Shown: positions 6,362-30,443, numbered from the stretch's first letter. The stretch is DNA of 34,397 nucleotides from a bacterium (GCA_963638955.1 CAVHTL010000003.1:6310-40706), one strand, 5' to 3'. Notes: generated by a model not told the origin, from the sequence alone. A program made the numbers and translations.

Positions 6362-7105
6362 ATGCTAGGAAACGTTCATTCCATAGAGACATTCGGTTCA
6401 GTCGATGGGCCAGGGATACGCTTCGTCATCTTCTTGAAGAGATGCGCGATGCGTTGCCTCTTTTGTCATAACCCTGACACTTGGGTAAAAGAAGGCGGTA
6501 CCCCCATAGATTCTGACGAGTTAATCGAAAAAGCCCTTCGTTATCGGCCGTACTGGGGTAAGGAAGGCGGAATAACCGTCTCGGGCGGTGAGCCACTCCT
6601 TCAAATCGATTTCTTGATCGCTTTGTTTAAAAAAGCCAAGGAAGAGGGGATAAACACATGCATCGACACGGCAGGGCAGCCCTTTTCAAGAAAAGATCCC
6701 TTCTTCTCCAAGTTTGAGGAACTCATGAAATATACCGATCTCCTTTTATTTGATATCAAGCATATCGACGAAGAGAAGCACAAAGAGCTGACAGGGCACC
6801 CCAATCAGAACATCATCGATATGTTTCGTTACTTAGACGAGATTAATAAGCCAATATGGATAAGACATGTCTTGTTGCCTGGCTACACAGATAATGACGC
6901 TTATCTATATAGAACGCGTGCGTTTATAAAGACGCTTAGTAACGTGAAACGAATCGATGTGTTGCCGTTTCATAAATTGGGCGAGTACAAATGGGAAAAA
7001 CTAGGTTATCCGTATAAACTCAAGGAGGTAGAAGCGCCGAAAAAAGAACGAGTGGAATTCGCTAAATCGGTATTAAATGGCGAAAAAGACGAAAAGTTGA
7101 TTTAG
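6362..7105 (+). CDS. pflA: Pyruvate formate-lyase activating enzyme (radical SAM)
   Basis: 247 aa. GSVDGPGIRFVIF then CAMRCLFCHNPDTW (CxxxCxxC cluster), GGITVSGGEPL. Immediately upstream of pflB. Confidence 0.93.
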   Translation: MLGNVHSIETFGSVDGPGIRFVIFLKRCAMRCLFCHNPDTWVKEGGTPIDSDELIEKALRYRPYWGKEGGITVSGGEPLLQIDFLIALFKKAKEEGINTCIDTAGQPFSRKDPFFSKFEELMKYTDLLLFDIKHIDEEKHKELTGHPNQNIIDMFRYLDEINKPIWIRHVLLPGYTDNDAYLYRTRAFIKTLSNVKRIDVLPFHKLGEYKWEKLGYPYKLKEVEAPKKERVEFAKSVLNGEKDEKLI

Positions 7106-7171
7106 GGCAAGTTTTTTATAAGCCAAGCCCTTACAATATGCGTTGCGAAAAATAACGGAAGGAGAAAATTA

Positions 7172-11667: not shown

Positions 11668-11681
11668 AATGCTTATCTCCT

Positions 11682-12137
11682 TTATTTCGTTTTGTAGATG
11701 ATGTAGAGAACGATTCCTATGGCAAGGAAGAATGCCCCTACGAAGAGGAGAGCGAAGGCCGGCTTGCGGGACTCGCTGTCCTTTAAGAGCTTATAGTCGT
11801 AATAAGTCGCGGGGAAACCCTGGGCTTTGAAGTGGGGCTTGAAGACGGTGTAGATGATTGTCTTCAATGAATAGGCGAGGAAGTCGAAGGCTCCTAGAGT
11901 CGAGAAGAACTGAAGGAGGAAGAAGAGAATCATTAGGAGTCCAGACAAAGCGAAGCAGTCAACGGATATCGCTAGAGCGTTTGTTTGATATCCTGCGGAT
12001 GTCTGGGAGAAATATTCGATGATTCCGATGATAAGGCCCACGATAGAGGCAAGGAGGAAACTTATGGCGAAGCTTATCCAGAAACCTCTGCTGAAGAAGG
12101 GCTCTTTTTGCTTTTTGCTCTCGTCCTTCTCGCTCAT
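11682..12137 (-). CDS. Small integral membrane protein (about 4 TM, DUF3899-like), function unknown
   Basis: 151 aa with four hydrophobic segments. Its ATG overlaps the oppF stop (ATGA), and it ends 14 nt before the protease gene. Confidence 0.6.
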   Translation of the reverse strand: MSEKDESKKQKEPFFSRGFWISFAISFLLASIVGLIIGIIEYFSQTSAGYQTNALAISVDCFALSGLLMILFFLLQFFSTLGAFDFLAYSLKTIIYTVFKPHFKAQGFPATYYDYKLLKDSESRKPAFALLFVGAFFLAIGIVLYIIYKTK

Positions 12138-15422: not shown

Positions 15423-17092
15423 TAATCGTCAGCTCCTTTCAAAGACGTATTGAAGGCGTCGCGCAAACCGTTGCCGAAGAGATTGAAGCAGATCATGAGC
15501 AAGGAAATGATGATGCAAGGGAAGAGCAAAACGTGAGGGTTAGTGCTCAAGCCAGCCGTTTGCCCTTCACTTAACAGGGTGCCAATCGAGGAGAGATTTG
15601 ATTTGCTGAAATCAACGATACCCAAGAAAGAAAGGGTGGATTCGGAGAAAATGACGCCTGGGATCATGAGGACGCTGCTAGTGATCAAAGTGCCGATGGC
15701 GTTCGGCAAAATGTGGCGGAAGATAAGACGAGCGTCTTTCGCGCCCAAAGTGCGGGAAGCCAAAACGTATTCCTGACCTTTGAAGCGGTAGAATTGCATA
15801 CGCGTCGTGCCCGCTACGCCAATCCAGCCTGAATAAACGAAGGCGATGAGGAAGGCCAAGATAAGGACCCCTGACTCGCCAATGCTCGCTTTGAGGGCGA
15901 TATTGTTGGTGAATTGAATCGAGCAAATGGTCAGAATGATGATTGAAGGAATATTCGAGATAATGTCGGTGACCCGCTCCATTGTCATATCGACGTAGCC
16001 GCCGTAATATCCGGAAATCGCGCCCCAGATGAGGCCGATAATGAAGTTGATCGCGCTGATGACGATACCGAGGAGAAGGGAAAACCTCGTCCCTTGAGCT
16101 AGGCGCAGGAAAATGTCTTGCCCAGCGCCGTTGGTACCAAATAGGAAGCGCGGCTCAAAGCCGTTTTTCCAGGTGAAATAATCGTAATAGTCCACGCGCG
16201 CATTGTATTTTCCACCGGCTGAGGTTGGTTCGGCATAAGTGCCGTCATCGTTCATTTTGTAAATCGAGACGGGCTTATTGTCTTTGTCAAAGACCGGCGT
16301 AAAGACGGAGGAATTGTAGACTCCGGAGGCGCTTTTCGCGGTCAAAGCGTAATAGATGCGTTTGTTGTTGTTGTAGTATGAGGTCATGTTCTCGATGATG
16401 TTGCTGATCATCGAATCGCTGAGTTCTGCCCCGGCTTCTTTCTCTTCGAGGAGTTGTGCCCTATAAGAGACAAGATAAGAAGCGCTGTCGACAAGATGCT
16501 TGAGGATGGTCGGCTTACCTTCCTCTACGCGCTTGGCATCATATTCTTTAAGCTCGGTGTATTCGCTTTCGCTTAGCCTCACTTCCTTATTGCCAACGGC
16601 ATATGTGTCGTAGCGGATCACGTAGGTGGTGAAAGTCACGGAAGCCACTTTTCTGACGCTGCTGCTTTCCGTTTTCACGTAGTAAGGGTGATTCGAATCA
16701 TCGTAGATAAGGGTGTTAAGCTCATCCTCGGCAATCGTTTTCGTTTTGGTGCCATCCCAGAAGCCAGTCCCCGCAAACCAGGAGCAATAGGGAGTGGCGT
16801 ATTGGAACTCCGCATCGCCAAAACCGTTAGGGTAACTGACGGCGTCAACATGGGCCGTAGGCATTATAAACGGCACGATAATGCCGTATAGGGCGATGAT
16901 AAGGATGATGGCGGCCCCGATGATGGAGGCTTTGTTTTTGGCAAAGCGGTTGAAGGAGTCGCGCAAAAAACTGACGGGTTTTGTCTCAAAGGCCTGATCG
17001 TGGAGATTGTCATGGTTAGGCACTTCTTTGAAGAGCGATTTATCGAGTTTCTCTTCAGTTGCGGGTTGCATGATTCTGTTCTCGTTTTCCAT
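15422..17092 (-). CDS. oppC: Oligopeptide ABC transporter permease OppC with about 250-aa extracytoplasmic loop
   Basis: 556 aa. TM1 near residues 56-78, then a long hydrophilic stretch before the conserved GTNGAGQDIFLRL motif and the BPD-transporter core. 1-nt overlaps (TAATG) with oppB and oppD. Confidence 0.85.
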   Translation of the reverse strand: MENENRIMQPATEEKLDKSLFKEVPNHDNLHDQAFETKPVSFLRDSFNRFAKNKASIIGAAIILIIALYGIIVPFIMPTAHVDAVSYPNGFGDAEFQYATPYCSWFAGTGFWDGTKTKTIAEDELNTLIYDDSNHPYYVKTESSSVRKVASVTFTTYVIRYDTYAVGNKEVRLSESEYTELKEYDAKRVEEGKPTILKHLVDSASYLVSYRAQLLEEKEAGAELSDSMISNIIENMTSYYNNNKRIYYALTAKSASGVYNSSVFTPVFDKDNKPVSIYKMNDDGTYAEPTSAGGKYNARVDYYDYFTWKNGFEPRFLFGTNGAGQDIFLRLAQGTRFSLLLGIVISAINFIIGLIWGAISGYYGGYVDMTMERVTDIISNIPSIIILTICSIQFTNNIALKASIGESGVLILAFLIAFVYSGWIGVAGTTRMQFYRFKGQEYVLASRTLGAKDARLIFRHILPNAIGTLITSSVLMIPGVIFSESTLSFLGIVDFSKSNLSSIGTLLSEGQTAGLSTNPHVLLFPCIIISLLMICFNLFGNGLRDAFNTSLKGADD

Positions 17093-18123
17093 TATTTTTT
17101 GCTCCCCATTCTGATGCGTGGATCCACTAAACCGTAAGAAACGTCGACGACGAGAGTGCCGACGAGTCCAATCGCGATATAGAACATCGAGACGAATTGG
17201 AAGACGTCGTAGTCGCGTTTTTGAATCGAGGCAAGGTATAAAGCGCCAACGCCAGGGACGTTGAAGATGTTCTCGATGATAAGCGACCCTGACAAAACGC
17301 TGATGATGGTGCCGAGAATCATCGGGAAAATCGGGACCAAAGAGTTGCGGAAGGCGTGACGGATCGTGGCTTGCGAGCGCGTTAAGCCTTTGGTTCTAGC
17401 AAGCAGCATGAAATCGCTTGTGAGAACCTCGGTTAGCTCAGCCCTCGTGTAACGGGCAAAGCCGGCGATGGAGCCGAAACTCATCGCGAGGACTGGCAAA
17501 ATCATCGCCTTGAACATCTGCGGGTCAAACCAGCCGCCCGGGAGTTCGCTCACGACTGGCAAAGTGGCTGGGAGCTTGAAGGCGTCCGAGACTTGATAAG
17601 CGAAGATGTTCTGCAATAAGAAGGCATAAACGAAACTTGGCACGGATATAAATAGCATGACCACGATATTGAGGACGTGATCTTCCCATTTGTTTTTCTT
17701 AAGCGCCATGAAAATGCCTAGGCCAATGCCTAAAGGAATCGAGATAATCATCGAATAGACGTTGATTAAAATAGTCGGCGGCATCTTCGAGAAAAGGATG
17801 TGCTCTGGGGTGTCGAGCCACTGAATGTAGTAGGAATAGCCCCAAGGCGCTTCGTTTCCGGGCGTGAAAAGGCCCTTCAAGAATGAGCCGAGCTGCTCAA
17901 AAACCGGAACGGTGACGTAAGAAGAGGTGGCTTCATCGTACTTCATCCTGCCTTGAGCCACCATGCGGAGATAAAAGACCTCAGGGTCTTTCATGCCAGT
18001 GTCAATGGAAATTGGTAGCATCCTCACCATGATGAAGCAGATGAAGAAAATGACGATGAAAGTGAACGCCATAAGCACAAGGCGCTGCAGGATATAAATT
18101 AGTGTTTGTTTTGTCTGTCTCAT
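17092..18123 (-). CDS. oppB: Oligopeptide ABC transporter permease OppB
   Basis: 343 aa. N-terminal YILQRLVLM-type start, EAA-like region ARTKGLTRSQATIRHAFRNSLVPI, and typical OppB/DppB topology. Confidence 0.88.
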   Translation of the reverse strand: MRQTKQTLIYILQRLVLMAFTFIVIFFICFIMVRMLPISIDTGMKDPEVFYLRMVAQGRMKYDEATSSYVTVPVFEQLGSFLKGLFTPGNEAPWGYSYYIQWLDTPEHILFSKMPPTILINVYSMIISIPLGIGLGIFMALKKNKWEDHVLNIVVMLFISVPSFVYAFLLQNIFAYQVSDAFKLPATLPVVSELPGGWFDPQMFKAMILPVLAMSFGSIAGFARYTRAELTEVLTSDFMLLARTKGLTRSQATIRHAFRNSLVPIFPMILGTIISVLSGSLIIENIFNVPGVGALYLASIQKRDYDVFQFVSMFYIAIGLVGTLVVDVSYGLVDPRIRMGSKK

Positions 18124-18149
18124 TTTTAACTATGTGATGATACTACAAT

Positions 18150-18184
18150 TTCAAAGAAATAGGCGACCGAACTCGGCCGCCTAT
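18150..18184 (-). terminator. Intercistronic hairpin / partial terminator between oppA and oppB
   Basis: Minus strand ATAGGCGGCCG-AGTT-CGGTCGCCTAT (11-bp stem, one mismatch) followed by TTCTTTG, starting 16 nt after the oppA stop. Confidence 0.5.
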
Positions 18185-18199
18185 TGATTAACAAGGAGG

Positions 18200-21043
18200 T
18201 CAGTTCCTCCAACCAGCGTAGAGGTCGGAGAGTTTGCCCCCGTTAGAGGAGACGAATTCCTTCCACCCCGCATTGGTGTAATTGAAGCGGAGGAAACGGA
18301 TTCCGCCGTAACCGACGAGGTTGATGTAGTTCTTCGTCGCGTTCTCGACTTTGAAGCCGGTGAGCGATGAAGAGCCTCTAGCGACGATCGGGATGGCTTC
18401 ATATCGGTTCACGATGCCAGCCTCGGTCCCAGCAAGGACGGTGAGCTTCTTTTCGTGAAGCTCTTTCCATTTCGCGTGCTCGGCTTGTTTGGCTTCGGAA
18501 AGAGATTTGGCGTCTTCGTCATTGACTTTGACATCATCTGAGTATTCGCCTTCTGCTAAATCATCATTCATGACGTGGTACCAGCCGTCGTAAGTGTTGA
18601 CTTCGTCGTCTGTCTGCTTTCCATCGCCATTCAAATCAATCCAGAGATCTTCTTGATCCTGTTTGCCTTTGAAGCCGTATTCGCAGCAATTGGTGAAGGT
18701 TTTATCGAGATATACCTGCATGAGTCCGTAAGGATCGATGGCGGCTCCGCCCCAGATGGAGAAGATCATATCGCTTCCGCCATTGCGGGCGGTGGTGTAG
18801 TAGTCTTCGTCTTTGACGAGGCTGATGTTGATCGATAATCCTTTGCCGTTCAATAAGGAAGCATCTTCCTCGTTTAACTCACTCACGGCATCGGCAAGGA
18901 GGGTGCTCCAAGCGGTGCTGATGAAGGTGTGCATCTCTTTGGTGGTATCGCTCGTGTTATCGTAGACACGGAACTCGATATCGATTGTATCGCCTGGCTG
19001 GAGATGCTTGCTTGCACTGCTCTTGATTTCCTCTTTGATGCCCTCTTTGAGGTAATATTTGGCCCAAGCGTAGTTATAGCCGTTTTCGCTCTTGCTTAAG
19101 GCAGAGGTCGTTGAATCGGTTGGCTCTCCGCCGAGCTCGCCATAGATTTGATTGTAGACGGACTGGCCTTGCGCGGTGTCGCGATACATCTCGCCAGTCA
19201 CGTTATTGGCGAGATATAGGCTATTGAGAAGACCTGTGAAAGCCTGTGAGCCAGCGGTGGTCTGCGAGGCAAAGTTGTTGCGGTCTAAGCCGAGAGAAAG
19301 GCCTTTGCGGAAATTCTTGTTCGCGATGACGGTCTTGTTTTTGCCGCTTTCGAGTTGACGGTCCGCGAGTTTGCTGCGATCGGTATTGAAACTGATTTTT
19401 TGGGTGTAAGACTCGAGAGTGGTGGTGCGGCGAGTGGAATTGCCGTAGGTCTTCATGTTGTCTTTGTTGAGGTCGATATCGTCGAGGTTGCCCGCCATGA
19501 ACTCGCTGACCGCGGTGTCATGGGTTTTGATGATGCGGGTGTAGATTTTCGTCATCTTGTATTGCTCGGCATCATCTCCTGTGTATTCGGAGAATTGGGC
19601 TTTGTAAGATTCGTCGGTATAGCCATACCACTGATCGTTTTTCTCGATGGTGATGGCTTGGTCTGTCACGAAAGCCGTGAGCTTATAGGCGCCGTAGGAT
19701 TTGTAGTTGTCGGTGCTAGCAGAAGCGTAGGAAGTCATCCAAGAGGAAGAGGAATTCTTCTTGGTGAGCCTCTCGTAGAGTTCTACATTGACGAGCCAGT
19801 TGCTCGAGAGCTGGAATTTGAGATCGAGCTCGGAGATGGATTTGCTTAGATATAGGCGCAATGTGTAGTCGTCTTTGGCTTGGACGCCGACATTATCCAT
19901 TGTCACGCCGGTTTTCTTATGGGTAACGTATTCACAAAGCGGGATTTTCCAAACCCAGCTCTTCGAGGCCCAGTTGGCGGAAGAAGAAAGTTCCGAGACA
20001 ACGGTCTTCAAATCGTTTTTGAGCTTGGTCGTGGTGTAGCGTTCAGTGGTATCGCTGCTATTGCGGGAAGAGGTGGTGAAAACCTCATTCTTGTCGAAAT
20101 CGTCGATGCAGAAAGGCTTCATGGTCGCAAGCATTGTCTGAGTGACGCTGTCGGCCTTCTTGATATCGTCCCACTTGTCTTTGTTGTCGGATTTCTCACT
20201 TTCGTTTCCGAATTTCCAATAGTAATAGGAGACGCCGAGCGTGATACGTTTCGCGGCAAGCTCAAGAGCGTCGCTCCCTGGAGTGCTGCGCGAATTCAAG
20301 ACGGTGTAGAAAGTGATGGTGTCGCTCGAGCCGCTTGAAGAGAAAATCGAATTGCCGTAAGTCGATTCGCCTTGGGCCAAGTCAAGATAGTATTTGCCTT
20401 GGGAGTCAAGTTTATCGCCGTTCTCGTCGTAAAGGTTGCCATCGGCGTTGCCGGCGGTGAGATAACCGAAAATAGGCTCAAGGACCTGACGGCCGTTCTT
20501 GTAATAGTTTTCGGCGTTAGCGATGACGAAATTGCCGTTGTAGTAGCTATCGGCGCGGTAGTTGGCGTATTGCGGTTTAAGAAGGAGATCCATCGAATCG
20601 ACGTAATCCTTCGCGGTGATGGCTTTGCCGTCTTCCCATTTGGCCGTTTTCCTTAAAGGAATATCCCAGATCATGCCGTTAGATGGCTCGCGGCCGTTGA
20701 AATAATTCGCCTTGATGGAATCGTATTCATCGGCATCGAGATCGGAAGGATCGATGGCGATAGGCATTTCGCTAGCCATTTCGCTGACGAACTTGTAGCC
20801 ATCGTGGGTGGCATTCATGACAACGTCATACAAGCCATCTTCGGTGAAACTTTGGATATAACTCTCATCGCTTGTCTCCCAGTTGTGGACGTTCCACTTG
20901 GAAGGGGAGGTAGAGAGATAGGTGTTGTAGGTGTAGCCATCTGGGTCATCGCTCTTCTCGCTCGAGCAGGCTGCCAAAGCGGCGACGCCTGCTGCGGAGA
21001 GAAAGAGGAAGCCAATGACTTTGTTTCTTTTCTTTGCGTTCAT
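18200..21043 (-). CDS. oppA: Oligopeptide-binding lipoprotein OppA (family-5 SBP, enlarged)
   Basis: 947 aa. Signal peptide with lipobox LAA-C26. Position directly upstream of oppBCDF, with SBP-5-like segments (e.g. KFQLSSNW, YGAYKL, RKGLSLGLDR). AAGGAG RBS. Confidence 0.75.
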   Translation of the reverse strand: MNAKKRNKVIGFLFLSAAGVAALAACSSEKSDDPDGYTYNTYLSTSPSKWNVHNWETSDESYIQSFTEDGLYDVVMNATHDGYKFVSEMASEMPIAIDPSDLDADEYDSIKANYFNGREPSNGMIWDIPLRKTAKWEDGKAITAKDYVDSMDLLLKPQYANYRADSYYNGNFVIANAENYYKNGRQVLEPIFGYLTAGNADGNLYDENGDKLDSQGKYYLDLAQGESTYGNSIFSSSGSSDTITFYTVLNSRSTPGSDALELAAKRITLGVSYYYWKFGNESEKSDNKDKWDDIKKADSVTQTMLATMKPFCIDDFDKNEVFTTSSRNSSDTTERYTTTKLKNDLKTVVSELSSSANWASKSWVWKIPLCEYVTHKKTGVTMDNVGVQAKDDYTLRLYLSKSISELDLKFQLSSNWLVNVELYERLTKKNSSSSWMTSYASASTDNYKSYGAYKLTAFVTDQAITIEKNDQWYGYTDESYKAQFSEYTGDDAEQYKMTKIYTRIIKTHDTAVSEFMAGNLDDIDLNKDNMKTYGNSTRRTTTLESYTQKISFNTDRSKLADRQLESGKNKTVIANKNFRKGLSLGLDRNNFASQTTAGSQAFTGLLNSLYLANNVTGEMYRDTAQGQSVYNQIYGELGGEPTDSTTSALSKSENGYNYAWAKYYLKEGIKEEIKSSASKHLQPGDTIDIEFRVYDNTSDTTKEMHTFISTAWSTLLADAVSELNEEDASLLNGKGLSINISLVKDEDYYTTARNGGSDMIFSIWGGAAIDPYGLMQVYLDKTFTNCCEYGFKGKQDQEDLWIDLNGDGKQTDDEVNTYDGWYHVMNDDLAEGEYSDDVKVNDEDAKSLSEAKQAEHAKWKELHEKKLTVLAGTEAGIVNRYEAIPIVARGSSSLTGFKVENATKNYINLVGYGGIRFLRFNYTNAGWKEFVSSNGGKLSDLYAGWRN

Positions 21044-21092
21044 TGATTGCTCCTTAATTTATATAGGATTTATAGATGCGTGAGGGTGAAAA

Positions 21093-22958
21093 TTAGGCAA
21101 CGGTCGTCGTGACGTTATCGTAAGAAGAGAAATCATTCGTGGTGGTGCCGATTTCACTCACTGCGTATTCGAACATTATGTAAGGTTGGTCGATGCCGCT
21201 GAAGGGCAAGCCCACGAGAGCGTTGACGACGATTTCGTTAGTCGAAGTATTGACGGAGACCAAGGAATAGGTCGCGGCGAAGGTAAGTGAGCCCGTGCTT
21301 CCGTCGGTGTATGGGACGCCGCCATCTTCAGTCAAAGAGGTGCCGGTACCGTTTGAGTATGGCGTGTATGACATTTGATCGAAGAGCCCAGCGAAGAAAC
21401 CGTTGGTTTGGACGCCACCAACGTTATCGCCGACGTTTCCGGCATAGAAGACATAATCTCCTTCGGTCAACTTCTGGCTCCAGTCGACGTCATCGATCGT
21501 ATCGAGATCGACGTTGTCGGCCATGTAAGTCTTGAATAAGCTGAGAAGCTTGCCCTCGCCATCTTCCGTCTTGGTGATTTCTTCCGGGACTTCCTTGTCA
21601 TCTTTGTCAGTGGTGGCAGCAGAATAGGTTCCCACATAATATTTGCCGTCCTCGTCTTTCCAATAAGCTGCGGACGAGACAAGCTCATCGTCTAGATAAG
21701 CGACTGTTTCGATATCGGTCGCGCTTGTGATGGTGTTCTCTTCTTTAATGGCGCTCTTAGTCCCTAAGAAGTAATACATCGCGCTCGTATCTGAAATATC
21801 GTCTATATCTAAAGCGTCGCCATTCTCGTCGCAAGCATAGATTTTCATCGTGGTCGTGTAATTCGCTTGTTCGATGATGGATTTGAAGGCGATGGCGATT
21901 TCTGGCGAGGAAATCTTCGCTGGGACATAAGAATCGTTCTTGGTAGCGACTTCAAGCGAATCCCAGGTGCAGCTCCCGACTTCAGAGATTTTGACCGAGC
22001 ACCATTCTTGATCGGTGTAGATTGTTCCGTCCGTTCCAGGCCCATCGACCGTGAGTCTTGCGTAGAGAGCGTCAGTCTCTCCGTCTCCGTCTTCGTCGAC
22101 GAGGTCTAAGACGTAGAAGCTATTTTCGGTATAGCCGCTTCTGTCCGGGAAGCTAGAGACGCCGTAATTGAGCAATTTTCTGACTTCGGTGGCTCCGCCG
22201 ATGAGTATTTCTTTGCCAGAGACATCATCGATAACGGAGGTGAAAGATCCGCCATCGAGGATCAACGAACCGCCGATGTAGTAGTTATCCATGCTGACCT
22301 TCCCGTTTTGGAAGACCGGCTTCTCATCGGCGTCGAAATAGCCAAAGTAACCATTTCCGTCGCTCAAATTGGCGATGATGAAGGATTCGGACTCGCCGTC
22401 TTTGTCCACGGCACCCACGTCTTCGGCGTCGAAAGCAGCGACGTAGTTCGGATTGTGGATGATGGTCTCGTTGCCATAGGTCCATTCGCCGCTGTCATCA
22501 TCGTATTCGCCGATGTCGAGGCGGTAGTTCTTGCCATCGCTTTCCTCAAATTTGGCGAAGAAGTTGATGAGCTTCATGTTGTAGGCGCTCTTGACGGAGA
22601 GAGTGATGTATTTGTCTTTGTCGTTGACGGCGAGCTTCAATTCGTATTCGCCGACCTCGCTGGCTTTGACTTTATGCCCGTCGATAGTAACCTTCTCATC
22701 ATCGCAGAAGACGGTGTATTTGTGAGTGATGGAGCTATCCGCATCGTCCATGACGACTTGGAAATACTCATCGAGATCGACTTCTTCATTGACCGCGACA
22801 TAAGAAAGCGTCTTATCTGTTGAAGAGATGGCATAGACATCGCCATCGACTTGGATGACGCCGTTGCTGTCGTATTTCTCTCCGGTGGTGCAACCGGTGA
22901 GCAGCCCGCCGAGCAATGTGAGTCCGGCAAGCACGAATAATTTCTTATTTAATTTCAT
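21093..22958 (-). CDS. Acidic lipoprotein of unknown function, first gene of the opp operon
   Basis: Likely start is ATG 22956-22958 (MKLNKK; GAGAAAGGA upstream) rather than 22991. Lipobox LTG-C23. 621 aa, very D/E-rich, no motif I recognise. Confidence 0.6.
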   Translation of the reverse strand: MKLNKKLFVLAGLTLLGGLLTGCTTGEKYDSNGVIQVDGDVYAISSTDKTLSYVAVNEEVDLDEYFQVVMDDADSSITHKYTVFCDDEKVTIDGHKVKASEVGEYELKLAVNDKDKYITLSVKSAYNMKLINFFAKFEESDGKNYRLDIGEYDDDSGEWTYGNETIIHNPNYVAAFDAEDVGAVDKDGESESFIIANLSDGNGYFGYFDADEKPVFQNGKVSMDNYYIGGSLILDGGSFTSVIDDVSGKEILIGGATEVRKLLNYGVSSFPDRSGYTENSFYVLDLVDEDGDGETDALYARLTVDGPGTDGTIYTDQEWCSVKISEVGSCTWDSLEVATKNDSYVPAKISSPEIAIAFKSIIEQANYTTTMKIYACDENGDALDIDDISDTSAMYYFLGTKSAIKEENTITSATDIETVAYLDDELVSSAAYWKDEDGKYYVGTYSAATTDKDDKEVPEEITKTEDGEGKLLSLFKTYMADNVDLDTIDDVDWSQKLTEGDYVFYAGNVGDNVGGVQTNGFFAGLFDQMSYTPYSNGTGTSLTEDGGVPYTDGSTGSLTFAATYSLVSVNTSTNEIVVNALVGLPFSGIDQPYIMFEYAVSEIGTTTNDFSSYDNVTTTVA

Positions 22959-23634
22959 AATTAATAATTGCGTCCTTTCTCCGCAAAACAATAAGTAAGA
23001 ATATGCGCAGTCTTTGAATTTTCAATTTTTATTTTCGTTTTTTGCATATCGTTACAGTGTAAGGGCTTACATCATGCATTTATAAGCGTTTTTTCATTTT
23101 TAAAACGCTCGGTAATTTTCTGTTTTTTGGGTTAAAAATGAGCAATCGCCTAAAAAAGATAATTTAGAGAAAACGGTTAAGCAAAAACCATTCCATCAAA
23201 GTAGCGAAAACCGCGATTGAAAAGAAGGAAAATCGTTTATTTCTCAAAAAACTAATTTAAGAAAACAGATTTATTTCCGCTTGTTTAGCGGAGCGTCAAA
23301 ATCTCGCCTTATCCATCCTTTTTTCTTGATTGGGATGACGCATCGCTTAGATCACTAAAGCCTCCTCTATCGTTGGTGGTTTGTCTCCTGTTCTGGGTCG
23401 ACAAAGCCAGTCTCCGTTCCATTTTGAACGCTCAAAACAGTCAAAACATCAAATAACAGGTCCCTTGAGTTCGTTAATGAAATGACGAACTTCATGAAAT
23501 CGGATACCAATGAATGAAAAAACGATTTCTGGAATTTGAACGTTTGCTTGCAAAGTAACGAGAAAGAGGCAAATTGCTTGCAATAAGAGACGCCTCAAGG
23601 ATAATTATGCGAGTCGCTTCGAGGTTAGAGAATT

Positions 23635-25374
23635 ATGAAAAAGAGAAACACGCTGCTAATTATGGGTCTATTTGCTTCATCTTTGACTCTTTCAAGCTGC
23701 GATGGTGGTTTCTTTCCGAGTTTCTCTTACAAGAGTTCATCCGTTTCTTATAGCGGCTCATCCGCCTCTATTAGCGGCTCATCTGTTTCTTCTAGCGGTT
23801 CCATCGGAAATGTCTCTTATTCCACTAGCCTTGTTGATGAGGCGTATTACGAAGCTAGCCTATCCTCTTTCCAGAAAATGAGTTTCGTGGAGCACGGCGA
23901 ATACGGATCGCTTGGCGCGGGAAGTATGCCCTCAACCGGAACGACGAAACTGCTTGTGATACCGGTCTATTTTAATGGGCTTTTGGATCCTAAGCCGAGC
24001 GATGATGATATCGCTAATATCGAATCGGCTTTCTTTGGGGCAAAAGAGGAAACGGGCTGGGAGTCGCTCAAAAGCTATTACAAAACCTCTTCTTACGGGA
24101 ATCTCGATATCGAAGGCGTGGTCACCGCGCCTTATAAGTTCTCTTATTCTTCCGACTCCTTTCAAAGCGCCTGCAAAAGCGGGAGGCTCGGCACCGACGA
24201 TTTGCTGAGCGCAGCAGTCAGCTGGGCCGAAGGGGAAGGATATGTCGACGATTCTTTTGACGCGGACAAAGACGGATATCTAGATGGGGTCGATCTCATT
24301 TATTTCACCAACAAGACCTATAACGATTATTCGGATCTCTGGTGGGCTTTCACGACCAACTACAGCGAAAACGAAGGGAAGGCGGATGCTTCTTCGCCTG
24401 TCCCATACCGTTATTTCTGGGCCCCGATGAGCATGATAAGCAATGGATATTATTCGCCTGATATCGATACCCATACTCTCGTCCACGAAACGGGTCACAT
24501 GATGGGGCTAGATGACTATTACTCCTATGATACCGTCGAAATAAGGAATAGCACCTATTCTTCCGAAGCCCCGTGCGGTATGGTCGATATGATGGATTGC
24601 AACGTCGGCGATCACGATGCTTATAGCAAGATGATGCTCGGCTGGGCGGCGCCGAAAGTGGTTCTTGGCGAAGGGAGTTTCTCTATTACCTTGAACAGTT
24701 TCACCGAGACTGGCGATTTCTTGCTCGTGCCATCAGGCTCATGGAATGGCACCCCATACGATGAATATCTGATCCTCCAATATTACACGCCGACTGGCTT
24801 AAACGAGGGGGATAGCGATGGCTACGAGGAATTCTCCAACGCCGCATATGGGCATGGGGGCACCTACTCCTATAGTGGTCTTCAGGTTTATCACGTCGAT
24901 GCCCGGCTTGCGCAGTATGATGCAGTGAGCGAAAGAGGCGGCTACGTCTATAAAAACCTCCGTTACAGCGATGATCCTTTGACTTACCAAAAAGACAACG
25001 GCGATTCCACCTATACCTTTAATCTGCAGATTGCGGCGAGCAACACCGGCTCTTATTCAATCGATGTGGGGAAAGGGCTTAGCTACAACAGCAAGACAGA
25101 GCAATACTACCTCAATTACCTCTCCGAGAACCGTCTTATCACTTTCATCCCAGGCGATGGATCGGACGATTTCTTAAGCTACGGCTACGAAGGTAATTTC
25201 GGAAAAAGCGGGCTGCTTTTCACCGAAAACGGGAATTCGACCTACACGAACGAAAAGATGCATGACTGTTATCAAAACGATGGCAAGTTCAATAACGGGA
25301 CGCTCTTCCCGTATACTTTTTCAGTGAGCGAGCAGACCTCTTCCTCGATCAAAGTGACTTTCACTCATTTGTGA
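23635..25374 (+). CDS. Lipoprotein zinc metallopeptidase, paralog of 9958-11667
   Basis: 579 aa. Lipobox LSS-C22, Ser-rich linker, LVHETGHMMGLDDYYSYD (His codon at 24484-24486). Shares blocks LLV(A/I)P, D(L)I(W/Y), WWA(Y/F), NVGDH..YSK...GW and VxHVDAR with the other protease. Confidence 0.7.
   Translation: MKKRNTLLIMGLFASSLTLSSCDGGFFPSFSYKSSSVSYSGSSASISGSSVSSSGSIGNVSYSTSLVDEAYYEASLSSFQKMSFVEHGEYGSLGAGSMPSTGTTKLLVIPVYFNGLLDPKPSDDDIANIESAFFGAKEETGWESLKSYYKTSSYGNLDIEGVVTAPYKFSYSSDSFQSACKSGRLGTDDLLSAAVSWAEGEGYVDDSFDADKDGYLDGVDLIYFTNKTYNDYSDLWWAFTTNYSENEGKADASSPVPYRYFWAPMSMISNGYYSPDIDTHTLVHETGHMMGLDDYYSYDTVEIRNSTYSSEAPCGMVDMMDCNVGDHDAYSKMMLGWAAPKVVLGEGSFSITLNSFTETGDFLLVPSGSWNGTPYDEYLILQYYTPTGLNEGDSDGYEEFSNAAYGHGGTYSYSGLQVYHVDARLAQYDAVSERGGYVYKNLRYSDDPLTYQKDNGDSTYTFNLQIAASNTGSYSIDVGKGLSYNSKTEQYYLNYLSENRLITFIPGDGSDDFLSYGYEGNFGKSGLLFTENGNSTYTNEKMHDCYQNDGKFNNGTLFPYTFSVSEQTSSSIKVTFTHL
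23749..23811 (+). repeat. Three imperfect 21-bp tandem repeats inside the Ser-rich linker of the protease lipoprotein
   Basis: TATAGCGGCTCATCCGCCTCT / ATTAGCGGCTCATCTGTTTCT / TCTAGCGGTTCCATCGGAAAT, encoding YSGSSAS-ISGSSVS-SSGSIGN. Confidence 0.6.
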
Positions 25375-25432
25375 TAGGCGGTTAAAAGAACTTATTAGCA
25401 GCGCTTTGCTTAAGCTCTATCGGTTATTTTCA

Positions 25433-26116
25433 TTATGAATAATCGAATGTGCTGACGGTCAAAGCGCCAGCGGAAGAGCCACCGATATAGAATCCGGTTT
25501 TGGATGCCGTTATGTCGTAATCCTTAAGAGAGATATCGATGGTTTGCGCGCTTCCGCCGTTTGAAAAAATAACGAATGTGGATTCATCGGCGAAGTGCTC
25601 TGCATCGATATCGATTTTGTATTGATTCTCGCCATAGGCGTTTTTGCTTATATGCTCCATTCTTTTCCCTGGCCAATCAGCGTTTTTGTTCGCGCCATTC
25701 CAGATATAGGCATAAGGCGTCCACCAATTTCGGGTATCGGTGAAGTAAAGAGAATAAGTAAGCGAAATGGATGCATCGGCAGGGGAGTAGAGCAAAGAAT
25801 ATGTCCCTTTGAAATAAAGGCTCAACGAGGAGCTTATCTTCTCTCCGGCTCCGGATTTGATGGCGATATTCGTTTTCGAAGCCTTGCTTCTGCTTTGCGA
25901 ATATTCGATTGAATACTCGCCGTTTTCTTTTAGGCTCATCTCCCCGTATTTCATCTCGTCCACCCACAAATAAGCGGAATCGCAGAGCCTTATTCTCGCT
26001 CCGATAGGATTCGCTTTATCATCCACAGTCAAGGAGGCGTAGACGCTCCCGAATAGCAAAGCGCAGGAAAGTAAGAGGCCGCTCAATAAGATGGTTTTCC
26101 TAATTCTTCGCCCCAT
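25433..26116 (-). CDS. Secreted protein with SipW-cognate-like N-terminus and aromatic carbohydrate-binding-like module
   Basis: 227 aa. Signal region ends FGSVYASLTVDDKANPIGARI, parallel to the 26802-28010 product. C-terminal YAYIWNGANKNADWPGKRM...FVIFSNGGSAQTIDI block. Its start overlaps the signal peptidase gene by 17 nt. Confidence 0.65.
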   Translation of the reverse strand: MGRRIRKTILLSGLLLSCALLFGSVYASLTVDDKANPIGARIRLCDSAYLWVDEMKYGEMSLKENGEYSIEYSQSRSKASKTNIAIKSGAGEKISSSLSLYFKGTYSLLYSPADASISLTYSLYFTDTRNWWTPYAYIWNGANKNADWPGKRMEHISKNAYGENQYKIDIDAEHFADESTFVIFSNGGSAQTIDISLKDYDITASKTGFYIGGSSAGALTVSTFDYS

Positions 26117-26738
26117 CTATTTTCTCCTCGCCTTCTTTCGTTTTGCTTTTCTTTTTCTCTTTGCCGAGAAAGAAATCGAGCAAGAGAAGAATGAATATGG
26201 CTCCGACCCCGAATAGCATTCCGTAGAACGATTGGAGGAAGGCTAGGACGTAGCCCATTTTCGGGAGCATGCCGACTTTTTTGGCTATGAGCATGCTGCG
26301 CGGGAAAGCGCCATCTCCGCTTGAAGAAGAGGCGGTATCGGCCCGTAAGAGATAACGGGTGGTTCCATCTCTTTCGATGATGTCCACGATGCGATGGATT
26401 GTTAGATTCCCGGTGTCTGGATGAAGGAACATCACGCAGTCATAGACATTTAATTCGGTATTTTCATCGATTTTCACCGAATAGACGATATCGCCCTTCT
26501 CGAACTGGTCATCGTGCCCGCTTAAAAAGGACTGGATATCGCTATCGGGGTTTTTGCTCGACATGGAATCGCTTGCGACGACATCGCTTCTTATGCCGAA
26601 CAAATATATGGAATTGCCGCTTAGCTTGACGGCGATTTCGTAAGAGATAAAAAGAAAGAGAAGCAAGGATATCGTAACGGTGAGAATATCGATTGCTTTC
26701 GCTTTCTTTTTGCCTTTTTGAAGTTTCTTTTCATCCAT
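26100..26738 (-). CDS. sipW: Signal peptidase I, ER/archaeal (SipW) type
   Basis: 212 aa. N-terminal TM, catalytic-Ser box ASDSMS, His box LTIHRIVDI, LLRADTASSS (in place of KxKGDNN), LPKMGYVLAFL and a C-terminal TM plus K/E tail. This is the SipW architecture as I recall it from B. subtilis. Confidence 0.75.
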   Translation of the reverse strand: MDEKKLQKGKKKAKAIDILTVTISLLLFLFISYEIAVKLSGNSIYLFGIRSDVVASDSMSSKNPDSDIQSFLSGHDDQFEKGDIVYSVKIDENTELNVYDCVMFLHPDTGNLTIHRIVDIIERDGTTRYLLRADTASSSSGDGAFPRSMLIAKKVGMLPKMGYVLAFLQSFYGMLFGVGAIFILLLLDFFLGKEKKKSKTKEGEEKIDGAKN

Positions 26739-26745
26739 AAGAACG

Positions 26746-26773
26746 AGAAGGGGAGAAAATCGCCTCCCCTTCT
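26746..26773 (-). promoter_or_regulatory. Perfect 10-bp stem hairpin between the TasA-like gene and the signal peptidase gene
   Basis: AGAAGGGGAG-8 nt-CTCCCCTTCT. On the minus strand it ends 7 nt before the sipW ATG and is followed by CGUUCUU. Confidence 0.5.
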
Positions 26774-26801
26774 TTAGATCGCTTTATTCGTCAGCGGCTA
26801 T

Positions 26802-28010
26802 TTAAGAAGACGATTTAACCACGTATATGTGCTCGTCTTTTGAAAGATAGACGTCATAGGCTCCATCTTCCGAGCATTCGTAATTGGAATCACTTCCGGA
26901 AACGCCGTAATATTGGCTATCGTTTGAGCTCGAGATGGCTTTTATGGAATCACCCGCTTTAAGGGAGAGGCCGTTGAATTGGGCTAAATTCTGCGTGGCG
27001 TCATCTGGTTCACTCATCGCGTATTCTTGAAGCAATCCAACGGATGAATACCACCGATTGACCCCTTCTATGACTCCGGTGATGTAATAATCGGCGAGGA
27101 TTGTTGGCTTATCCGCGCCCCAGGTAACGGTGTATTTTTCGTTATCAGAAGCTTTTTCGTCGATCGTGGCGTAAGGCTTACTGGAATCATATTTGAGATC
27201 AACGGTTTGGTATGCGACTTCGCCGTCTTTTTTCGCCGAGAATATGATGTTCGTATAATCTTTAAGCAAGTCGAAACTGTAGAACTTGTCGGCAACTTTG
27301 TTCATGGCTTCACCTGGGAAGGTAGCGTTTTGCTTTGAGCCATTCCAAGCGTAGACATAGATATCGCCATCCCAGACGTTACTTTCGTTATACAAATACA
27401 CAGGGTTGGTGCTTGCCTCTTCATCGTTCCCGGATTTGTTCCAGTCGAAGGAGAGATAAACCGATTGCGTTTTCACGGTTTCGTAATACGGAGTGACGCT
27501 TTCATCGAGCGTCACGAATATTGAATAAATAGCCCCTTCAGCGTTTCCTGTAACGCTTATGGATGAAGAATGATTCGTTGCGCCGGCTGCAATTCCTCCG
27601 ATTCTCTCATCATTCGTTTCCGGTTTTGTCTCCAAAGAGCCTTTGTATACGTCGATGGTGAGGTAATCGTAAAGATAGGCGTCCGGCGCTTTTTCGCCAT
27701 AATCCGTCAAATCGGAAAGATCGAGTTTCAGGATACCGGTATATTCTTCCTCGTCCATCCCGCTCGCCTTCAAGGAGAGTTCGCCTACTTTTTGCGTGCT
27801 TCCAGAGGTGAGCCCAGAAACGGGAGCAATGGTGTTGTTGCCCCATTCAAGGGTGATTTTCTTGACCGTCTCATCAGTGAGCGAGCCAGGGGTGATCTTC
27901 GTGCCAAAAGGATTGGCGTTGTCATTGACGGCGTAGGCAGCATAGGTAATGCCGCCAAGCAAAGCAACGGCGCCTGCAGCGCCGCCTATGAGCATAAGCG
28001 AACGTTTCAT
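26802..28010 (-). CDS. Secreted TasA/CalY-like protein fused to carbohydrate-binding-like modules
   Basis: Likely start is ATG 28008-28010 (MKRSL; AAAGGAG 8 nt upstream). N-terminus ...ALLGGITYAAYAVNDNANPFGTKITPGSL resembles the TasA signal/mature junction (GGGTWAAFND...SGTL). Mid block IYVYAWNGSKQNATFPGEAM...IIFSAKKDGEVAYQTVDL. A further W/Y-rich C-terminal module. Confidence 0.6.
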   Translation of the reverse strand: MKRSLMLIGGAAGAVALLGGITYAAYAVNDNANPFGTKITPGSLTDETVKKITLEWGNNTIAPVSGLTSGSTQKVGELSLKASGMDEEEYTGILKLDLSDLTDYGEKAPDAYLYDYLTIDVYKGSLETKPETNDERIGGIAAGATNHSSSISVTGNAEGAIYSIFVTLDESVTPYYETVKTQSVYLSFDWNKSGNDEEASTNPVYLYNESNVWDGDIYVYAWNGSKQNATFPGEAMNKVADKFYSFDLLKDYTNIIFSAKKDGEVAYQTVDLKYDSSKPYATIDEKASDNEKYTVTWGADKPTILADYYITGVIEGVNRWYSSVGLLQEYAMSEPDDATQNLAQFNGLSLKAGDSIKAISSSNDSQYYGVSGSDSNYECSEDGAYDVYLSKDEHIYVVKSSS

Positions 28011-28101
28011 CAAAAAAGCTCCTTTCTTGGATTTGCAACGTTTTTCTTTGTCTTTATCCTATAACGCCTTTCTTCTCATCGCAATGGGCTCGAACTTATT
28101 T

Positions 28102-28130
28102 TTAATATGCGTTTAAAAATAGGATTTGAA
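28102..28130 (-). promoter_or_regulatory. Candidate promoter of the three-gene secretion cassette
   Basis: Minus strand TTCAAA (28125-28130), 17-nt spacer, TATTAA (28102-28107), about 90 nt upstream of the start codon. Confidence 0.3.
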
Positions 28131-28249
28131 CGCAATCGAAAGAACACCCATGAAATGCCTGCTTTTTATAGGAAAGGAACATTCCGCGGTCGCTTAATCT
28201 CTTCATGCAAGTGATATTACGAACTGGCTCTTTAGTACAAAAATCTATG

Positions 28250-28318
28250 GCGTAACCTCTAAAGCGAGAAAGGCATATTCCTCTTCTCGCCGCCTTTCTT
28301 TCGCTTTAGGGGTTACGC
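28250..28318. repeat. Long imperfect palindrome (about 25-bp arms, 17-nt spacer)
   Basis: GCGTAACCTCTAAAGCGAGAAAGGC ... GCCTTTCTTTCGCTTTAGGGGTTACGC. The arms are complementary apart from a 2-nt bulge and one mismatch. Confidence 0.7.
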
Positions 28319-28485
28319 TCTTTGGATCAAATAGAGGAAAGAACCTTCGGAGAGGTTTGATGAGTCTAATAAAGCAAGGAGTATAAAATCATACACAAAT
28401 ACCGATAATGACTAACTTTTCATTGATTTTGAGCCGTGATTATGGTAAAAAACCTGAATTTAGAAGAATCGTTGAAAATCTTGTG

Positions 28486-30192
28486 CTAAAGTTTGAATTT
28501 AGCAAAGTTTTGGATATCTTTATCAGTGAAATAATAGTTATCAATAGGCAGATTAATTAAATCGAAAATTGGTTTGTCTTTTCCCTTTTTGGTTAATAGA
28601 TTTATGTAATGGTTTTCGCCTTTGGCAACGTTGAATTTTCTGCAGAACTCAAAGATGCTGTTGGCGGGTATTTTGTCTTTCAGGATCTTCAGCTCCAATA
28701 TCCTCATCAAGAACAATGCGGTATAGCAAACCAGGAAATGGCCGTAGATCGTTTCTTTTTTCGATACATGCACGGGGCGGGAAACCAAATTGGTTTTGAG
28801 TATCCTGAACGATTCCTCGATTCTCCATAGGTTTTTGTAAACCGACAATATGCTTTCGTCTTCCATCTTGATTTCGGAAGTGACGATCATGTTGTAGCCG
28901 CAATATTTTAAATCCTCGTCGATCTTTTCCCGATTGATCAAGGCGGTGATGTTTTTGGAATTGATTTCGCCGTCTTCATCAACGGAAGCGATTTTGACGT
29001 ATTTGGCCAAATCGCCGAGATCTTTTCTTTTGATCGTCGACAGAGCCGCGTTTCGCAAGCTCTCTATTTCGTTGTTTATTTCCAGCCTGTGCTTGTCTTC
29101 CAAAGGTTTCGACCAATAGACGACTCTCTTTTGGGTTACGGCAAACGAGAGCTTCCGGCCGTTATCGTCGACAAAAGAATAAGGGAATTCGTCGACGCAT
29201 GACTTTATCTTGAAGACGGTCTCGCCGTTTTCTTTGGTTTCTTTGTACTGGCCTTGGATATCCACCCACACTTTTTCCTTGGCCGAGAGCTTTTTTACCG
29301 ATTGGGAATAGATGTATCCGTCGTTTTCTTTCGCCGCTTCGTAGATATTCCTGGCGCAATTCAGGCCTTTGTCGGCCACTTGAATGGTTTTGCCGGCGAT
29401 TCTGTTGGTGGATTTCATTTTGCTGATGATGTCTCTGATCTCTTGCCTTTCCGATTGATTGCCCGGATACATATGCATCGACAAAGGGATTTGATCTTCG
29501 TCCAAAAGCAAAGCCATGCCGATGATGGGGTCTTTCCTGTTTTCCTTGGAAGGCCCTTTCTGCTTGTCCTCAAACGGTTTGTCGATTTCGAAATAATAAT
29601 TGGTGCAATCGAAATAGACGTTGTTGGTTTTCCTTTTGTAAAACTTTTGGTAATGCGCATTCAGCATTTCGATGACCGACGGATAATTCTCGCCGAGGAT
29701 ATTCAAGCCGCCGAGCAACGAATCATAAGTCAAATCGAACCCATGGATTAAGGTGGGGATGGTTTCTTCGTAGGTTTTGCGGTTGGAAGAGGGGGCAATG
29801 ATCCTGGAAGCGATCAAGGCATAGTAGACATCGTATAGCGAATATTTGTTCTTTGAGCCGAAAGTAAGGTAAGAGAAATCCCGTTTGATGTCGAGCTTCT
29901 CCAAAATGGACAAAGGCAATAGATAGCCAATGTTCTTGATCGGCGATTCTTCGCCGATTTTTTTGGTTTTCATATTGATGGCGATTTCCTTTCTCTCGTT
30001 TTCCATTTTGCCAACGAGATCTTTGGCGTACTGCAATGGATCGGAAACGCCTTGCCTGATCAAATCGTCATGGTATCCGATGACTTTGATGGATTTTTGG
30101 GTGGCATAGCCCTTGTCTGGGTTATGAACGCCTTCATAAACTTGATAATAGACACCTTTTTTGGTCGCGGATTTTTTAAGGAAATAGCTCAT
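28486..30192 (-). CDS. IS1634-family (IS4 superfamily) DDE transposase
   Basis: Likely start is ATG 30190-30192 (MSYFLKK; GAGGTG 5 nt upstream). N-terminal KKGVYYQVYEG...KSIKVIGY pattern, YPGNQSE, VADKGLN, and YKNLWRIEESFRILK (Y-R-E-K signature region). Confidence 0.8.
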   Translation of the reverse strand: MSYFLKKSATKKGVYYQVYEGVHNPDKGYATQKSIKVIGYHDDLIRQGVSDPLQYAKDLVGKMENERKEIAINMKTKKIGEESPIKNIGYLLPLSILEKLDIKRDFSYLTFGSKNKYSLYDVYYALIASRIIAPSSNRKTYEETIPTLIHGFDLTYDSLLGGLNILGENYPSVIEMLNAHYQKFYKRKTNNVYFDCTNYYFEIDKPFEDKQKGPSKENRKDPIIGMALLLDEDQIPLSMHMYPGNQSERQEIRDIISKMKSTNRIAGKTIQVADKGLNCARNIYEAAKENDGYIYSQSVKKLSAKEKVWVDIQGQYKETKENGETVFKIKSCVDEFPYSFVDDNGRKLSFAVTQKRVVYWSKPLEDKHRLEINNEIESLRNAALSTIKRKDLGDLAKYVKIASVDEDGEINSKNITALINREKIDEDLKYCGYNMIVTSEIKMEDESILSVYKNLWRIEESFRILKTNLVSRPVHVSKKETIYGHFLVCYTALFLMRILELKILKDKIPANSIFEFCRKFNVAKGENHYINLLTKKGKDKPIFDLINLPIDNYYFTDKDIQNFAKFKL

Positions 30193-30232
30193 AAAAGCAC
30201 CTCGAAGATATTGTAGCACAATATAGCACAAG

Positions 30233-30261
30233 AATAAATAGCATTACAAAAAAATTGTCAA
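30233..30261 (-). promoter_or_regulatory. Candidate transposase promoter
   Basis: Minus strand TTGACA (30256-30261), 17-nt spacer, TTTATT (30233-30238), about 40 nt upstream of the transposase ATG. Confidence 0.35.
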
Positions 30262-30302: not shown

Positions 30303-30443
30303 AACCTCTATATCAATCCATATTTCCTTCTAAATTTTTCTTGTGCTAAATTCTAAAAACGGGGATAAGGTCGAGAAATGGGCCGCTTTTCTTTATAGCG
30401 CTCTATCTTTTTTCTTGCCTTTTGCCTATAATACCGGGTGATT

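Follow-up and report, generated by a model that had tools for sequence, protein, structure and literature searches.

The stretch of DNA studied here, 34,397 nucleotides (nt) from a bacterium (GCA_963638955.1, CAVHTL010000003.1:6310-40706; the window in what follows), contains a cassette of three genes, g1, g2 and g3, in which a putative signal peptidase (g2) is encoded between two proteins (g1 and g3) with similar N-termini. The question raised by this locus is whether the peptidase is dedicated to its two neighbours and, if so, what these would form outside the cell. The reading that we favour, with a probability of about 0.6, takes the cassette as a self-contained module for secretion and assembly, akin to tapA-sipW-tasA and repurposed for starch capture. 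A preliminary description of the window had proposed a dedicated secretion module for a glycan-binding, possibly fibre-forming protein, and this proposal is supported by the alignment of the peptidase, the synteny, the CBM26 modules and the fold of g1.

All three open reading frames (ORFs) are located on the minus strand in the same orientation, in the order g1-g2-g3 (Table), and all features that had been ascribed to them were found in the sequence. The coordinates of the ORFs confirm the arrangement of two substrates around a peptidase. The likeness to tapA-sipW-tasA holds for the position of the peptidase between two substrates but not for the gene order, which is major subunit, peptidase, minor subunit. 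The ORF of g1 is also open to position 28013 with a TTG start, while the ATG at 28010, which yields the 402-aa protein, is preceded at a distance of 8 nt by a ribosome-binding site (AAAGGAG). The g2 and g3 genes overlap by 17 nt. The GC-rich hairpin between g1 and g2 may be an attenuator or an mRNA-stabilising element, and could fix the ratio of the major subunit to the peptidase and the minor subunit. A scan of positions 25200-28600 revealed no sigma-70-like promoter.

The g2 protein is a divergent, probably active signal peptidase of the endoplasmic reticulum (ER)/archaeal branch (SipW/SEC11). Searches with hidden Markov models (HMMs) matched g2 to SipW (NCBIfam NF046067; E = 1.2e-10, 41.3 bits) and to archaeal signal peptidase (SPase) I (TIGR02228; E = 8.5e-6, 25.7 bits). 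The g2 family, defined as 11 clusters in a word-indexed protein database, matched TIGR02228 in 11 of 11 members and the SipW model in 10 of 11 (best E = 4.5e-12 and 3e-18, respectively), and the family profile matched human SEC11A in the PDB (7P2P, 9RJB; E = 5.7e-5). Residues S58-M59, H115-R116, R132-A133-D134 and D142 were invariant across the 11 members. When a SEC11A fragment was added to the alignment using MAFFT (--add), VVLSGSM was placed on VV(A/L)S(D/G)SM, VHRV on THRI/V and KGDN on RADT; an HMM alignment of the family to SEC11A agreed with MAFFT on the His and the Asp, and one family member reads VVLSGSME. The motifs of the ER/archaeal-type layout that had been noticed in g2 were found at aa 56-60 (SDSMS) and aa 113-120 (TIHRIVDI), and Ser, His and Asp all aligned with their SEC11A counterparts; hydrophobic stretches at about aa 17-39 and 160-190, the C-terminal one aligned with the C-terminal segment of SEC11A, are candidate membrane segments. 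In long-form paralogues of g2, 330-370 aa in size, the His and Asp boxes are separated by an insertion of about 130 aa; these are often the second peptidase in tandem arrays of substrate and peptidase genes.

The proteins on either side of g2 start with a basic/hydrophobic signal and then share a segment, Y-A-(A/S)-x-x-V-(N/D)-D-x-A-N-P-(F/I)-G-x-(K/R)-I, that reads Y23-A-A-Y-A-V-N-D-N-A-N-P-F-G-T-K-I39 in g1 and Y26-A-S-L-T-V-D-D-K-A-N-P-I-G-A-R-I42 in g3. As had been noted, it is an exact match to the described motif and occurs nowhere else in the window: a six-frame regular-expression scan returned g1, g3 and one spurious match outside any ORF. The remaining exports encoded in the window were likewise correctly described as lipoproteins, and carry the lipoboxes LLTGC, ALSSC, ALAAC and LSSC. 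Two other assignments of the N-termini were rejected, a lipobox in g3 (LLSC, aa 15-18) since the Cys is not kept in a 58%-identical orthologue in L001, and a class III signal of the type IV pilin kind since the hydrophobic stretch comes before the conserved motif and not after it.

An exhaustive HMMER search with aa 1-200 of g1 yielded a family that, clustered at 50% identity, has 131 representatives; for 90 of these, E was < 1e-10. Nearly all start with the same signal and motif, and 117 of the 131 match the motif in its strict form. The family consensus, GGTFA|AWAVTDNADPFGIKITPG (107 sequences), reads G-G-T-F-A-A-W-A-V-T-D-N-A-D-P-F-G-I-K-I-T-P-G; the Ala at the predicted -1 position is invariant, position -3 is Thr, Ala or Val, and an Asp and an Ala further on are also invariant. 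Among the downstream-type (g3-like) proteins, A27, D33 and A35 are invariant. Conservation extends 18 residues beyond the predicted cleavage site, where F, I and I alternate (F-x-I-x-I) as in a beta-strand. The junction of the g1 family (T-F/Y-A|A-W/Y) has the same T-aromatic-A|A-aromatic form as that of TasA (T-W-A|A-F), and the end of the consensus, GGTFAAWAVTD, shares this core with the SipW-cognate GGGT(W/F)A(A/Y)F(N/S)D but has two extra residues before the Asp. An hhalign comparison of the N-domain profile, signal included, with residues 3-67 of TasA gave a probability of 91% (E = 9e-7), to which the signal peptide contributed most; the TasA query was checked against 8AUR, in which the chain begins at A28 (AFNDIK). 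Within a locus, the 8 residues that follow D-x-A were identical at 4.6 of 8 positions on average between partners, as compared to 2.7 of 8 across loci, a value reached in 1 of 20,000 permutations. Such likeness is expected if both segments fit one groove, and equally if both fit one peptidase.

Downstream of this segment, both proteins contain a starch-binding module. The carbohydrate-binding-like modules of the preliminary description turned out to be CBM26, with scores above the PF16738 threshold in g1 and in g3, and searches of the PDB matched their sequences to Amy16 and Sas6 of Ruminococcus bromii. From these modules, binding of alpha-glucan by g1 and g3 is predicted with good confidence. 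CBM26 was present in 66 of the 71 family members of about 400 aa, with matches to SusF_SusE, X25 and CBM25 in a few, and longer relatives add the catalytic domain of a GH13 alpha-amylase while retaining the signal, the motif, the TasA-like N-domain and CBM26. The C-terminal beta-sandwich of g1 is probably a second starch-binding or immunoglobulin-like module.

An AlphaFold2 model of g1, built from a 71-row alignment, had a mean predicted local distance difference test score (pLDDT) of 86, with residues 1-46 below 50 followed by three beta-rich domains. Foldseek searches of the PDB with full-length g1 retrieved the TasA fibre (8AUR, probability 1.00), CanA (0.99) and AbpA (0.85), along with Sas6 and the CBM26 structure 2C3G. 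With the N-domain modelled alone (aa 25-200), the four top matches were AbpA (7UEG; E = 1e-4, probability 0.99) and CanA (9h8b, 9hdi and 7uii; probability 0.99-1.00). In the models, then, the jelly-roll of the g1 N-domain resembles TasA, AbpA and CanA at the level of the fold only, which is support for a fibre subunit and not proof. The structural comparison with TasA suggested at the outset thus gave a match to 8AUR for g1. In g3 no TasA-like domain was detected, and the N-core HMM matched the CBM26 part only.

The genomic context carries the case for a dedicated peptidase. We traced 8 peptidase homologues to their contigs and added loci from GTDB genomes and JGI metagenomes. Motif-bearing genes bracketed the peptidase in every locus with enough flanking sequence, about 17 independent loci, and the recurrence of the motif beside peptidase homologues is far beyond chance. 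The upstream partner always had an N-domain of the g1 type, and the downstream partner had the motif followed by variable CBM-like modules (CBM26, CBM20). Five loci (L003, L011, L016, L019 and L025) contained two peptidase paralogues that alternate with substrates and have been duplicated together with them. The outer flanks differed between loci, which indicates that the cassette is a self-contained unit; genes for amylase, branching enzyme (GlgB) and phosphorylase adjoin it in some. Of three loci sampled from the substrate side, two had an adjacent peptidase gene. The contigs of the relatives are recorded as metagenome-assembled genomes (MAGs) of uncultured Bacilli from reindeer, roe-deer omasum and rumen. 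The conservation of gene neighbourhoods that the preliminary description had put forward for inspection is therefore present across about 17 loci, with co-duplication in five, and we consider a dedicated peptidase-substrate module to be highly probable.

Table. Features of the cassette, with positions counted from the first nucleotide of the window; positions preceded by an L number are in related loci.
Feature	Position	Strand	Basis
g1, major substrate	26802..28010	-	ORF, 402 aa; signal peptide, N-terminal segment, jelly-roll, CBM26, C-terminal beta-sandwich
g1 signal peptide with GGITYA at its end, aa 1-24	27939..28010	-	predicted cleavage A24|A25; G20 and A24 invariant in 71 sequences
g1 conserved mature segment AYAVNDNANPFGTKITPG, aa 25-42, candidate donor strand	27885..27938	-	counts in 107 sequences; pLDDT <50 in monomer model
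g1 TasA/AbpA/CanA-like jelly-roll, aa ~47-195	27426..27872	-	domain model with pLDDT 89 and predicted template modelling score (pTM) 0.81; Foldseek
g1 CBM26, aa 204-272	27195..27401	-	PF16738, E = 7.8e-9, 36.0 bits (cut-off 28.1); Foldseek 2c3g, Sas6
g1 C-terminal beta-sandwich, aa ~300-402	26805..27113	-	high-pLDDT strands; weak amylase/CBM20 profile matches, E = 0.08-0.17
GC-rich hairpin between g1 and g2, 11 bp	26746..26773	-	terminator-like scan; dG -22.9 kcal/mol, z -2.4; T-tail weak
g2, SipW/SEC11-type (S26B-like) signal peptidase I	26100..26738	-	ORF, 212 aa; hydrophobic segments at both ends
g2 Ser58 codon, predicted nucleophile, in VVASDSM	26565..26567	-	invariant; aligned with SEC11A VVLSGSM
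g2 His115 codon, predicted general base, in THRIV	26394..26396	-	invariant; aligned with SEC11A VHRV
g2 Asp134 codon, in RADTA	26337..26339	-	invariant; aligned with SEC11A GDNN box
g3, minor substrate	25433..26116	-	ORF, 227 aa; signal peptide, N-terminal segment, small beta domain, CBM26
g3 conserved mature segment SLTVDDKANPIGARI, aa 28-42	25991..26035	-	predicted cleavage A27|S28; BLASTP against g1 N-terminus E = 1e-6
g3 CBM26, aa 124-195	25532..25747	-	PF16738, E = 3.1e-13, 50.1 bits (cut-off 28.1); PDB, R. bromii Amy16 repeats, E = 9e-8
GH13 fusions in relatives	L018 9032-11332; L025 1709-3985; proteins P0056, P0081, P0108		PF00128, E = 1e-12 to 1e-15
Long-form peptidase paralogues	L003 8116-9114; L016 2404-3471; L019 822-1925, 3631-4623; L025 3989-5086, 6562-7665; L026 423-1472		

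Several results weigh against a TasA-like module. The scores of g2 fall below the curated cut-offs (41.3 versus 190 bits for NF046067 and 25.7 versus 51.85 bits for TIGR02228) and no Pfam S24/S26 model matched it at E <= 1; assignment to the S26B group, as had been anticipated, is favoured by the significant E values and the aligned catalytic Ser and His but not by these thresholds. We attribute the weak scores to an insertion of 16 residues that follows the Ser box in the g2 family. Neither of the two substrate models named in the preliminary description produced a match, PF12389 (TasA/camelysin) in g1 or 71 relatives, or TIGR04088 in g1 and g3 (E <= 1) or 8 N-domains (E <= 10), and sequence and profile searches of the PDB (g1, A3 and A6) retrieved no TasA, AbpA or CanA. 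With the signal peptide removed, the hhalign score against mature TasA was 20.6, no better than the 30 shuffles (maximum 19.0), so the similarity to TasA sits in the signal and cleavage region and homology at the sequence level is not claimed. Since the family models do not match, the case stands on fold, context and motif. The predicted cleavage site fits the ordinary -3/-1 rule of SPase I, and dedicated processing is therefore deduced from the genomic linkage; of the earlier concern that cleavage might look ordinary and a TasA-like fold be missing, the former applies, while the fold is present in g1 and was not detected in g3. Neither g1 nor g3 has a visible cell anchor, and a search of their C-termini for a sortase signal, dockerin or transmembrane anchor found none. 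Finally, in one locus (L018), where one of the two substrates is an amylase fusion, no peptidase gene lies within 5 kb.

Part of this evidence would also suit a simpler arrangement, in which g1, g3 and their amylase-fused relatives are monomeric starch-binding proteins, secreted or on the surface, that do not polymerise and share a dedicated SipW-type peptidase on account of their unusual signal peptides, the conserved segment being a recognition determinant or linker and the N-domain a spacer or CBM beta-sandwich. Besides the lack of sequence-level similarity to TasA in the mature domain, the Foldseek scores are modest (E = 1e-4 to 3e-3, TM-scores of 0.29-0.43) and the list also contains generic beta-sandwiches from integrin, ephrin receptor and sialidase modules; fusion of the N-domain to GH13 amylases is a normal architecture for a multi-modular enzyme, and the co-variation within loci fits the P' specificity of a peptidase equally well, or could reflect gene conversion. 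We nevertheless consider monomers unlikely, since the four top structural matches of the N-domain are all subunits of donor-strand fibres, with the TasA fibre at a probability of 1.00 for the full-length protein, and the 18 residues after the cleavage site are more conserved than the domains, a stretch for which recognition by a signal peptidase normally has no need. Moreover, the pairing of a protein that has the acceptor domain with one that lacks it mirrors TasA and TapA (PMC9674648).

That g2 is instead the general type I signal peptidase of the organism, located between two secreted proteins by chance, is far less probable than monomers. It would agree with the generic cleavage site, with the isolated substrates in L018 and with the window itself, in which no other SPase I gene was found in 34 kb and the remaining exported proteins, all lipoproteins, depend on SPase II. 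Yet a housekeeping enzyme is not expected to be duplicated together with its substrates, as in five loci, nor to be flanked by motif genes in all of about 17 loci with otherwise unrelated surroundings, and g2 belongs with SipW and SEC11, not with LepB. Beyond the shortness of the motif, nothing suggests that the ORFs and the shared segment are a coincidence or an artefact of gene calling. This explanation is excluded for practical purposes by the conservation of the ORFs in many metagenomes, the significant domain matches, the confident models and the presence of the motif in every locus.

A mechanism for the TasA-like module can be outlined from its better-known counterparts. In TasA, the donor strand by which one subunit complements the following one consists of residues 28-38, immediately behind the cleavage site, and TapA has a similar N-terminus that is the proposed source of the first strand (PMC9674648); TasA, AbpA and CanA belong to one TasA superfamily of filaments held together by donor-strand complementation (PMC12518558, PMC9245690). 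By analogy, the precursors of g1 and g3 would be exported by Sec, and g2, presumably membrane-bound, would cut, through Ser58, His115 and Asp134, after T/V-Tyr-Ala, at A24|A25 in g1 and A27|S28 in g3; the catalytic residues and the genetic linkage behind this step are observed. The amphipathic segment freed in g1, A-Y-A-V-N-D-N-A-N-P-F-G-T-K-I-T-P-G, may then insert as a donor beta-strand into the jelly-roll of the next g1, and a head-to-tail fibre of the kind formed by TasA, AbpA and CanA would grow without a chaperone. The conservation beyond the cleavage site, the F-x-I-x-I alternation and the disorder of this segment in the monomer model fit such a role. We lean slightly towards such polymerisation. 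Every subunit would project its CBM26 and second beta-sandwich, and the fibre could act as a multivalent binder of alpha-glucan or starch granules. As g3 has the donor segment and no acceptor jelly-roll, it could only donate a strand, and would nucleate or cap the fibre, as proposed for TapA, while adding a CBM26 of its own. Given the GH13 domains in relatives, the system has the appearance of a fibre on which uncultured Bacilli of the ruminant gut display modules that bind and degrade starch.

The surroundings of the cassette were also annotated. Immediately upstream of it is an IS1634-family transposase gene at 28486-30231 on the minus strand (NF033559, E = 2.5e-85; DDE_Tnp_1), with TCTTGTGCTAAA repeats near both of its ends (28479-28495, 30217-30233 and 30335-30352). 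An identical cassette is present in a second assembly, on a contig that stops about 575 nt upstream of g1, short of the position of this insertion sequence (IS). An inverted repeat at 28250-28318, between the transposase gene and g1 (18 nt, 94% complementary, 33-nt spacer; GCGTAACCTCTAAAGCGA / TCGCTTTAGGGGTTACGC), may be a terminator or an element that belongs to the IS. On the other side and convergent with the cassette, positions 23635-25374 (+) encode a lipoprotein whose lipobox is LSSC and which combines a long linker rich in Ser with a metalloprotease domain of the M6 family (TIGR03296, E = 3e-20; HETGH). An oligopeptide ABC transporter operon at 9958-22991 (-) has enlarged parts, namely an OppA-like lipoprotein of 947 aa, an OppC of 556 aa and ATPases of 603 and 494 aa, and also holds two lipoproteins of 569 and 632 aa for which Pfam gave no match; the enlarged Opp proteins and the many lipoproteins are reminiscent of Mollicutes-like Bacilli. 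Further features on the plus strand are a cluster of tRNA genes for Ile(GAT), Val(CAC) and Thr(TGT) at 257-638, a purine riboswitch at 3543-3641 (RF00167, 41.7 bits, gathering threshold 37) upstream of a xanthine/uracil permease-family gene at 3724-5268, and at 6362-9421 a gene pair for pyruvate formate-lyase (PFL-like and glycine radical domains) and its activating enzyme of the radical SAM type, which indicates an anaerobic, fermentative host.

TasA-type fibres are scaffolds of the biofilm matrix in Bacillus, and bundling pili or cannulae in archaea. Full-text searches of the literature for TasA or SipW together with CBM26 gave no papers, and a search for TasA, carbohydrate-binding module and donor strand gave only a general review from 2013. 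The parts are thus known, while the combination of a TasA-superfamily scaffold, a SipW-type peptidase and starch-binding or amylase cargo, as well as the sequence family itself, appear to be undescribed. The family (at least 131 clusters at 50% identity) escapes the HMMs for TasA and the SipW signal, so that its members are presumably unannotated or simply called starch-binding proteins. Tentatively, and with less assurance than for the fibre as such, we propose an unrecognised class of apparatus for the use of starch outside the cell, a cohesin-free "amylosome fibre" made of a TasA-superfamily donor-strand fibre with CBM26 (and GH13 in relatives), its own SipW-type peptidase and a CBM-bearing nucleator analogous to TapA. 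If the proteins polymerise, they would represent a third route to the capture and degradation of extracellular starch in gut bacteria, beside Sus-like outer-membrane systems and cohesin-dockerin amylosomes, in uncultured Bacilli of ruminants, the physiology of which is deduced from MAGs alone. A donor-strand fibre with a cargo domain would also be a natural modular scaffold for protein engineering.

The closest known counterparts of the peptidase itself are, within MEROPS S26B, eukaryotic SEC11A/C and the signal peptidase I of archaea, with which g2 shares the Ser, His and Asp boxes (VVLSGSM, HRV, GDN) and the C-terminal hydrophobic segment; it differs from these in being a stand-alone bacterial protein, in having RADTA in place of GDNN, and in its 16-aa insert, which is joined in some paralogues by the insert of about 130 aa. 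As a system, the cassette is best compared with tapA-sipW-tasA of Bacillus subtilis (Böhning et al. 2022, PMC9674648; Roske et al. 2023, PMC10151520). Both have an ER/archaeal-type peptidase encoded between two substrates, signals that end in G-G-T-aromatic-A|A-aromatic, a major subunit with a jelly-roll, and a second protein that shares the donor-like N-terminal segment but not the fold of the major subunit. In contrast to B. subtilis, homology of the mature domains went undetected with PF12389 and TIGR04088, the major subunit precedes the peptidase and the minor subunit, the segment after the cleavage site is different and longer (AWAVTDNADPFGIKITPG), both proteins contain CBM26, with GH13 amylase in relatives, the peptidase has its insertion, and the hosts are uncultured Bacilli of the ruminant gut.

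The proteins closest in structure to the g1 N-domain, AbpA of the bundling pili (7UEG, PMC9245690) and CanA of the cannulae, form, like AbpX and CanX (PMC12518558), chaperone-free polymers by means of a donor strand at the N-terminus, and a dedicated signal peptidase I often adjoins AbpX homologues, as is the case here. These proteins are, however, archaeal, hyperthermophilic and single-domain, they carry no carbohydrate-binding or catalytic cargo, and their TM-scores to the g1 domain are low. In function, the nearest parallel is the starch adherence system and amylosome of R. bromii (Sas6, 7UWU/7UWW; Amy16, 9QF9), another gut anaerobe that binds starch through CBM26: the CBM26 of g1 and the beta-sandwich that follows it superimpose on Sas6 in Foldseek, and the CBM26 sequences match those of Amy16. 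Whereas assembly of the amylosome relies on the pairing of cohesin with dockerin and on sortase anchoring, the present cassette has neither dockerin nor cohesin, and its assembly is proposed to proceed by donor-strand polymerisation after cleavage by a SipW-type peptidase.

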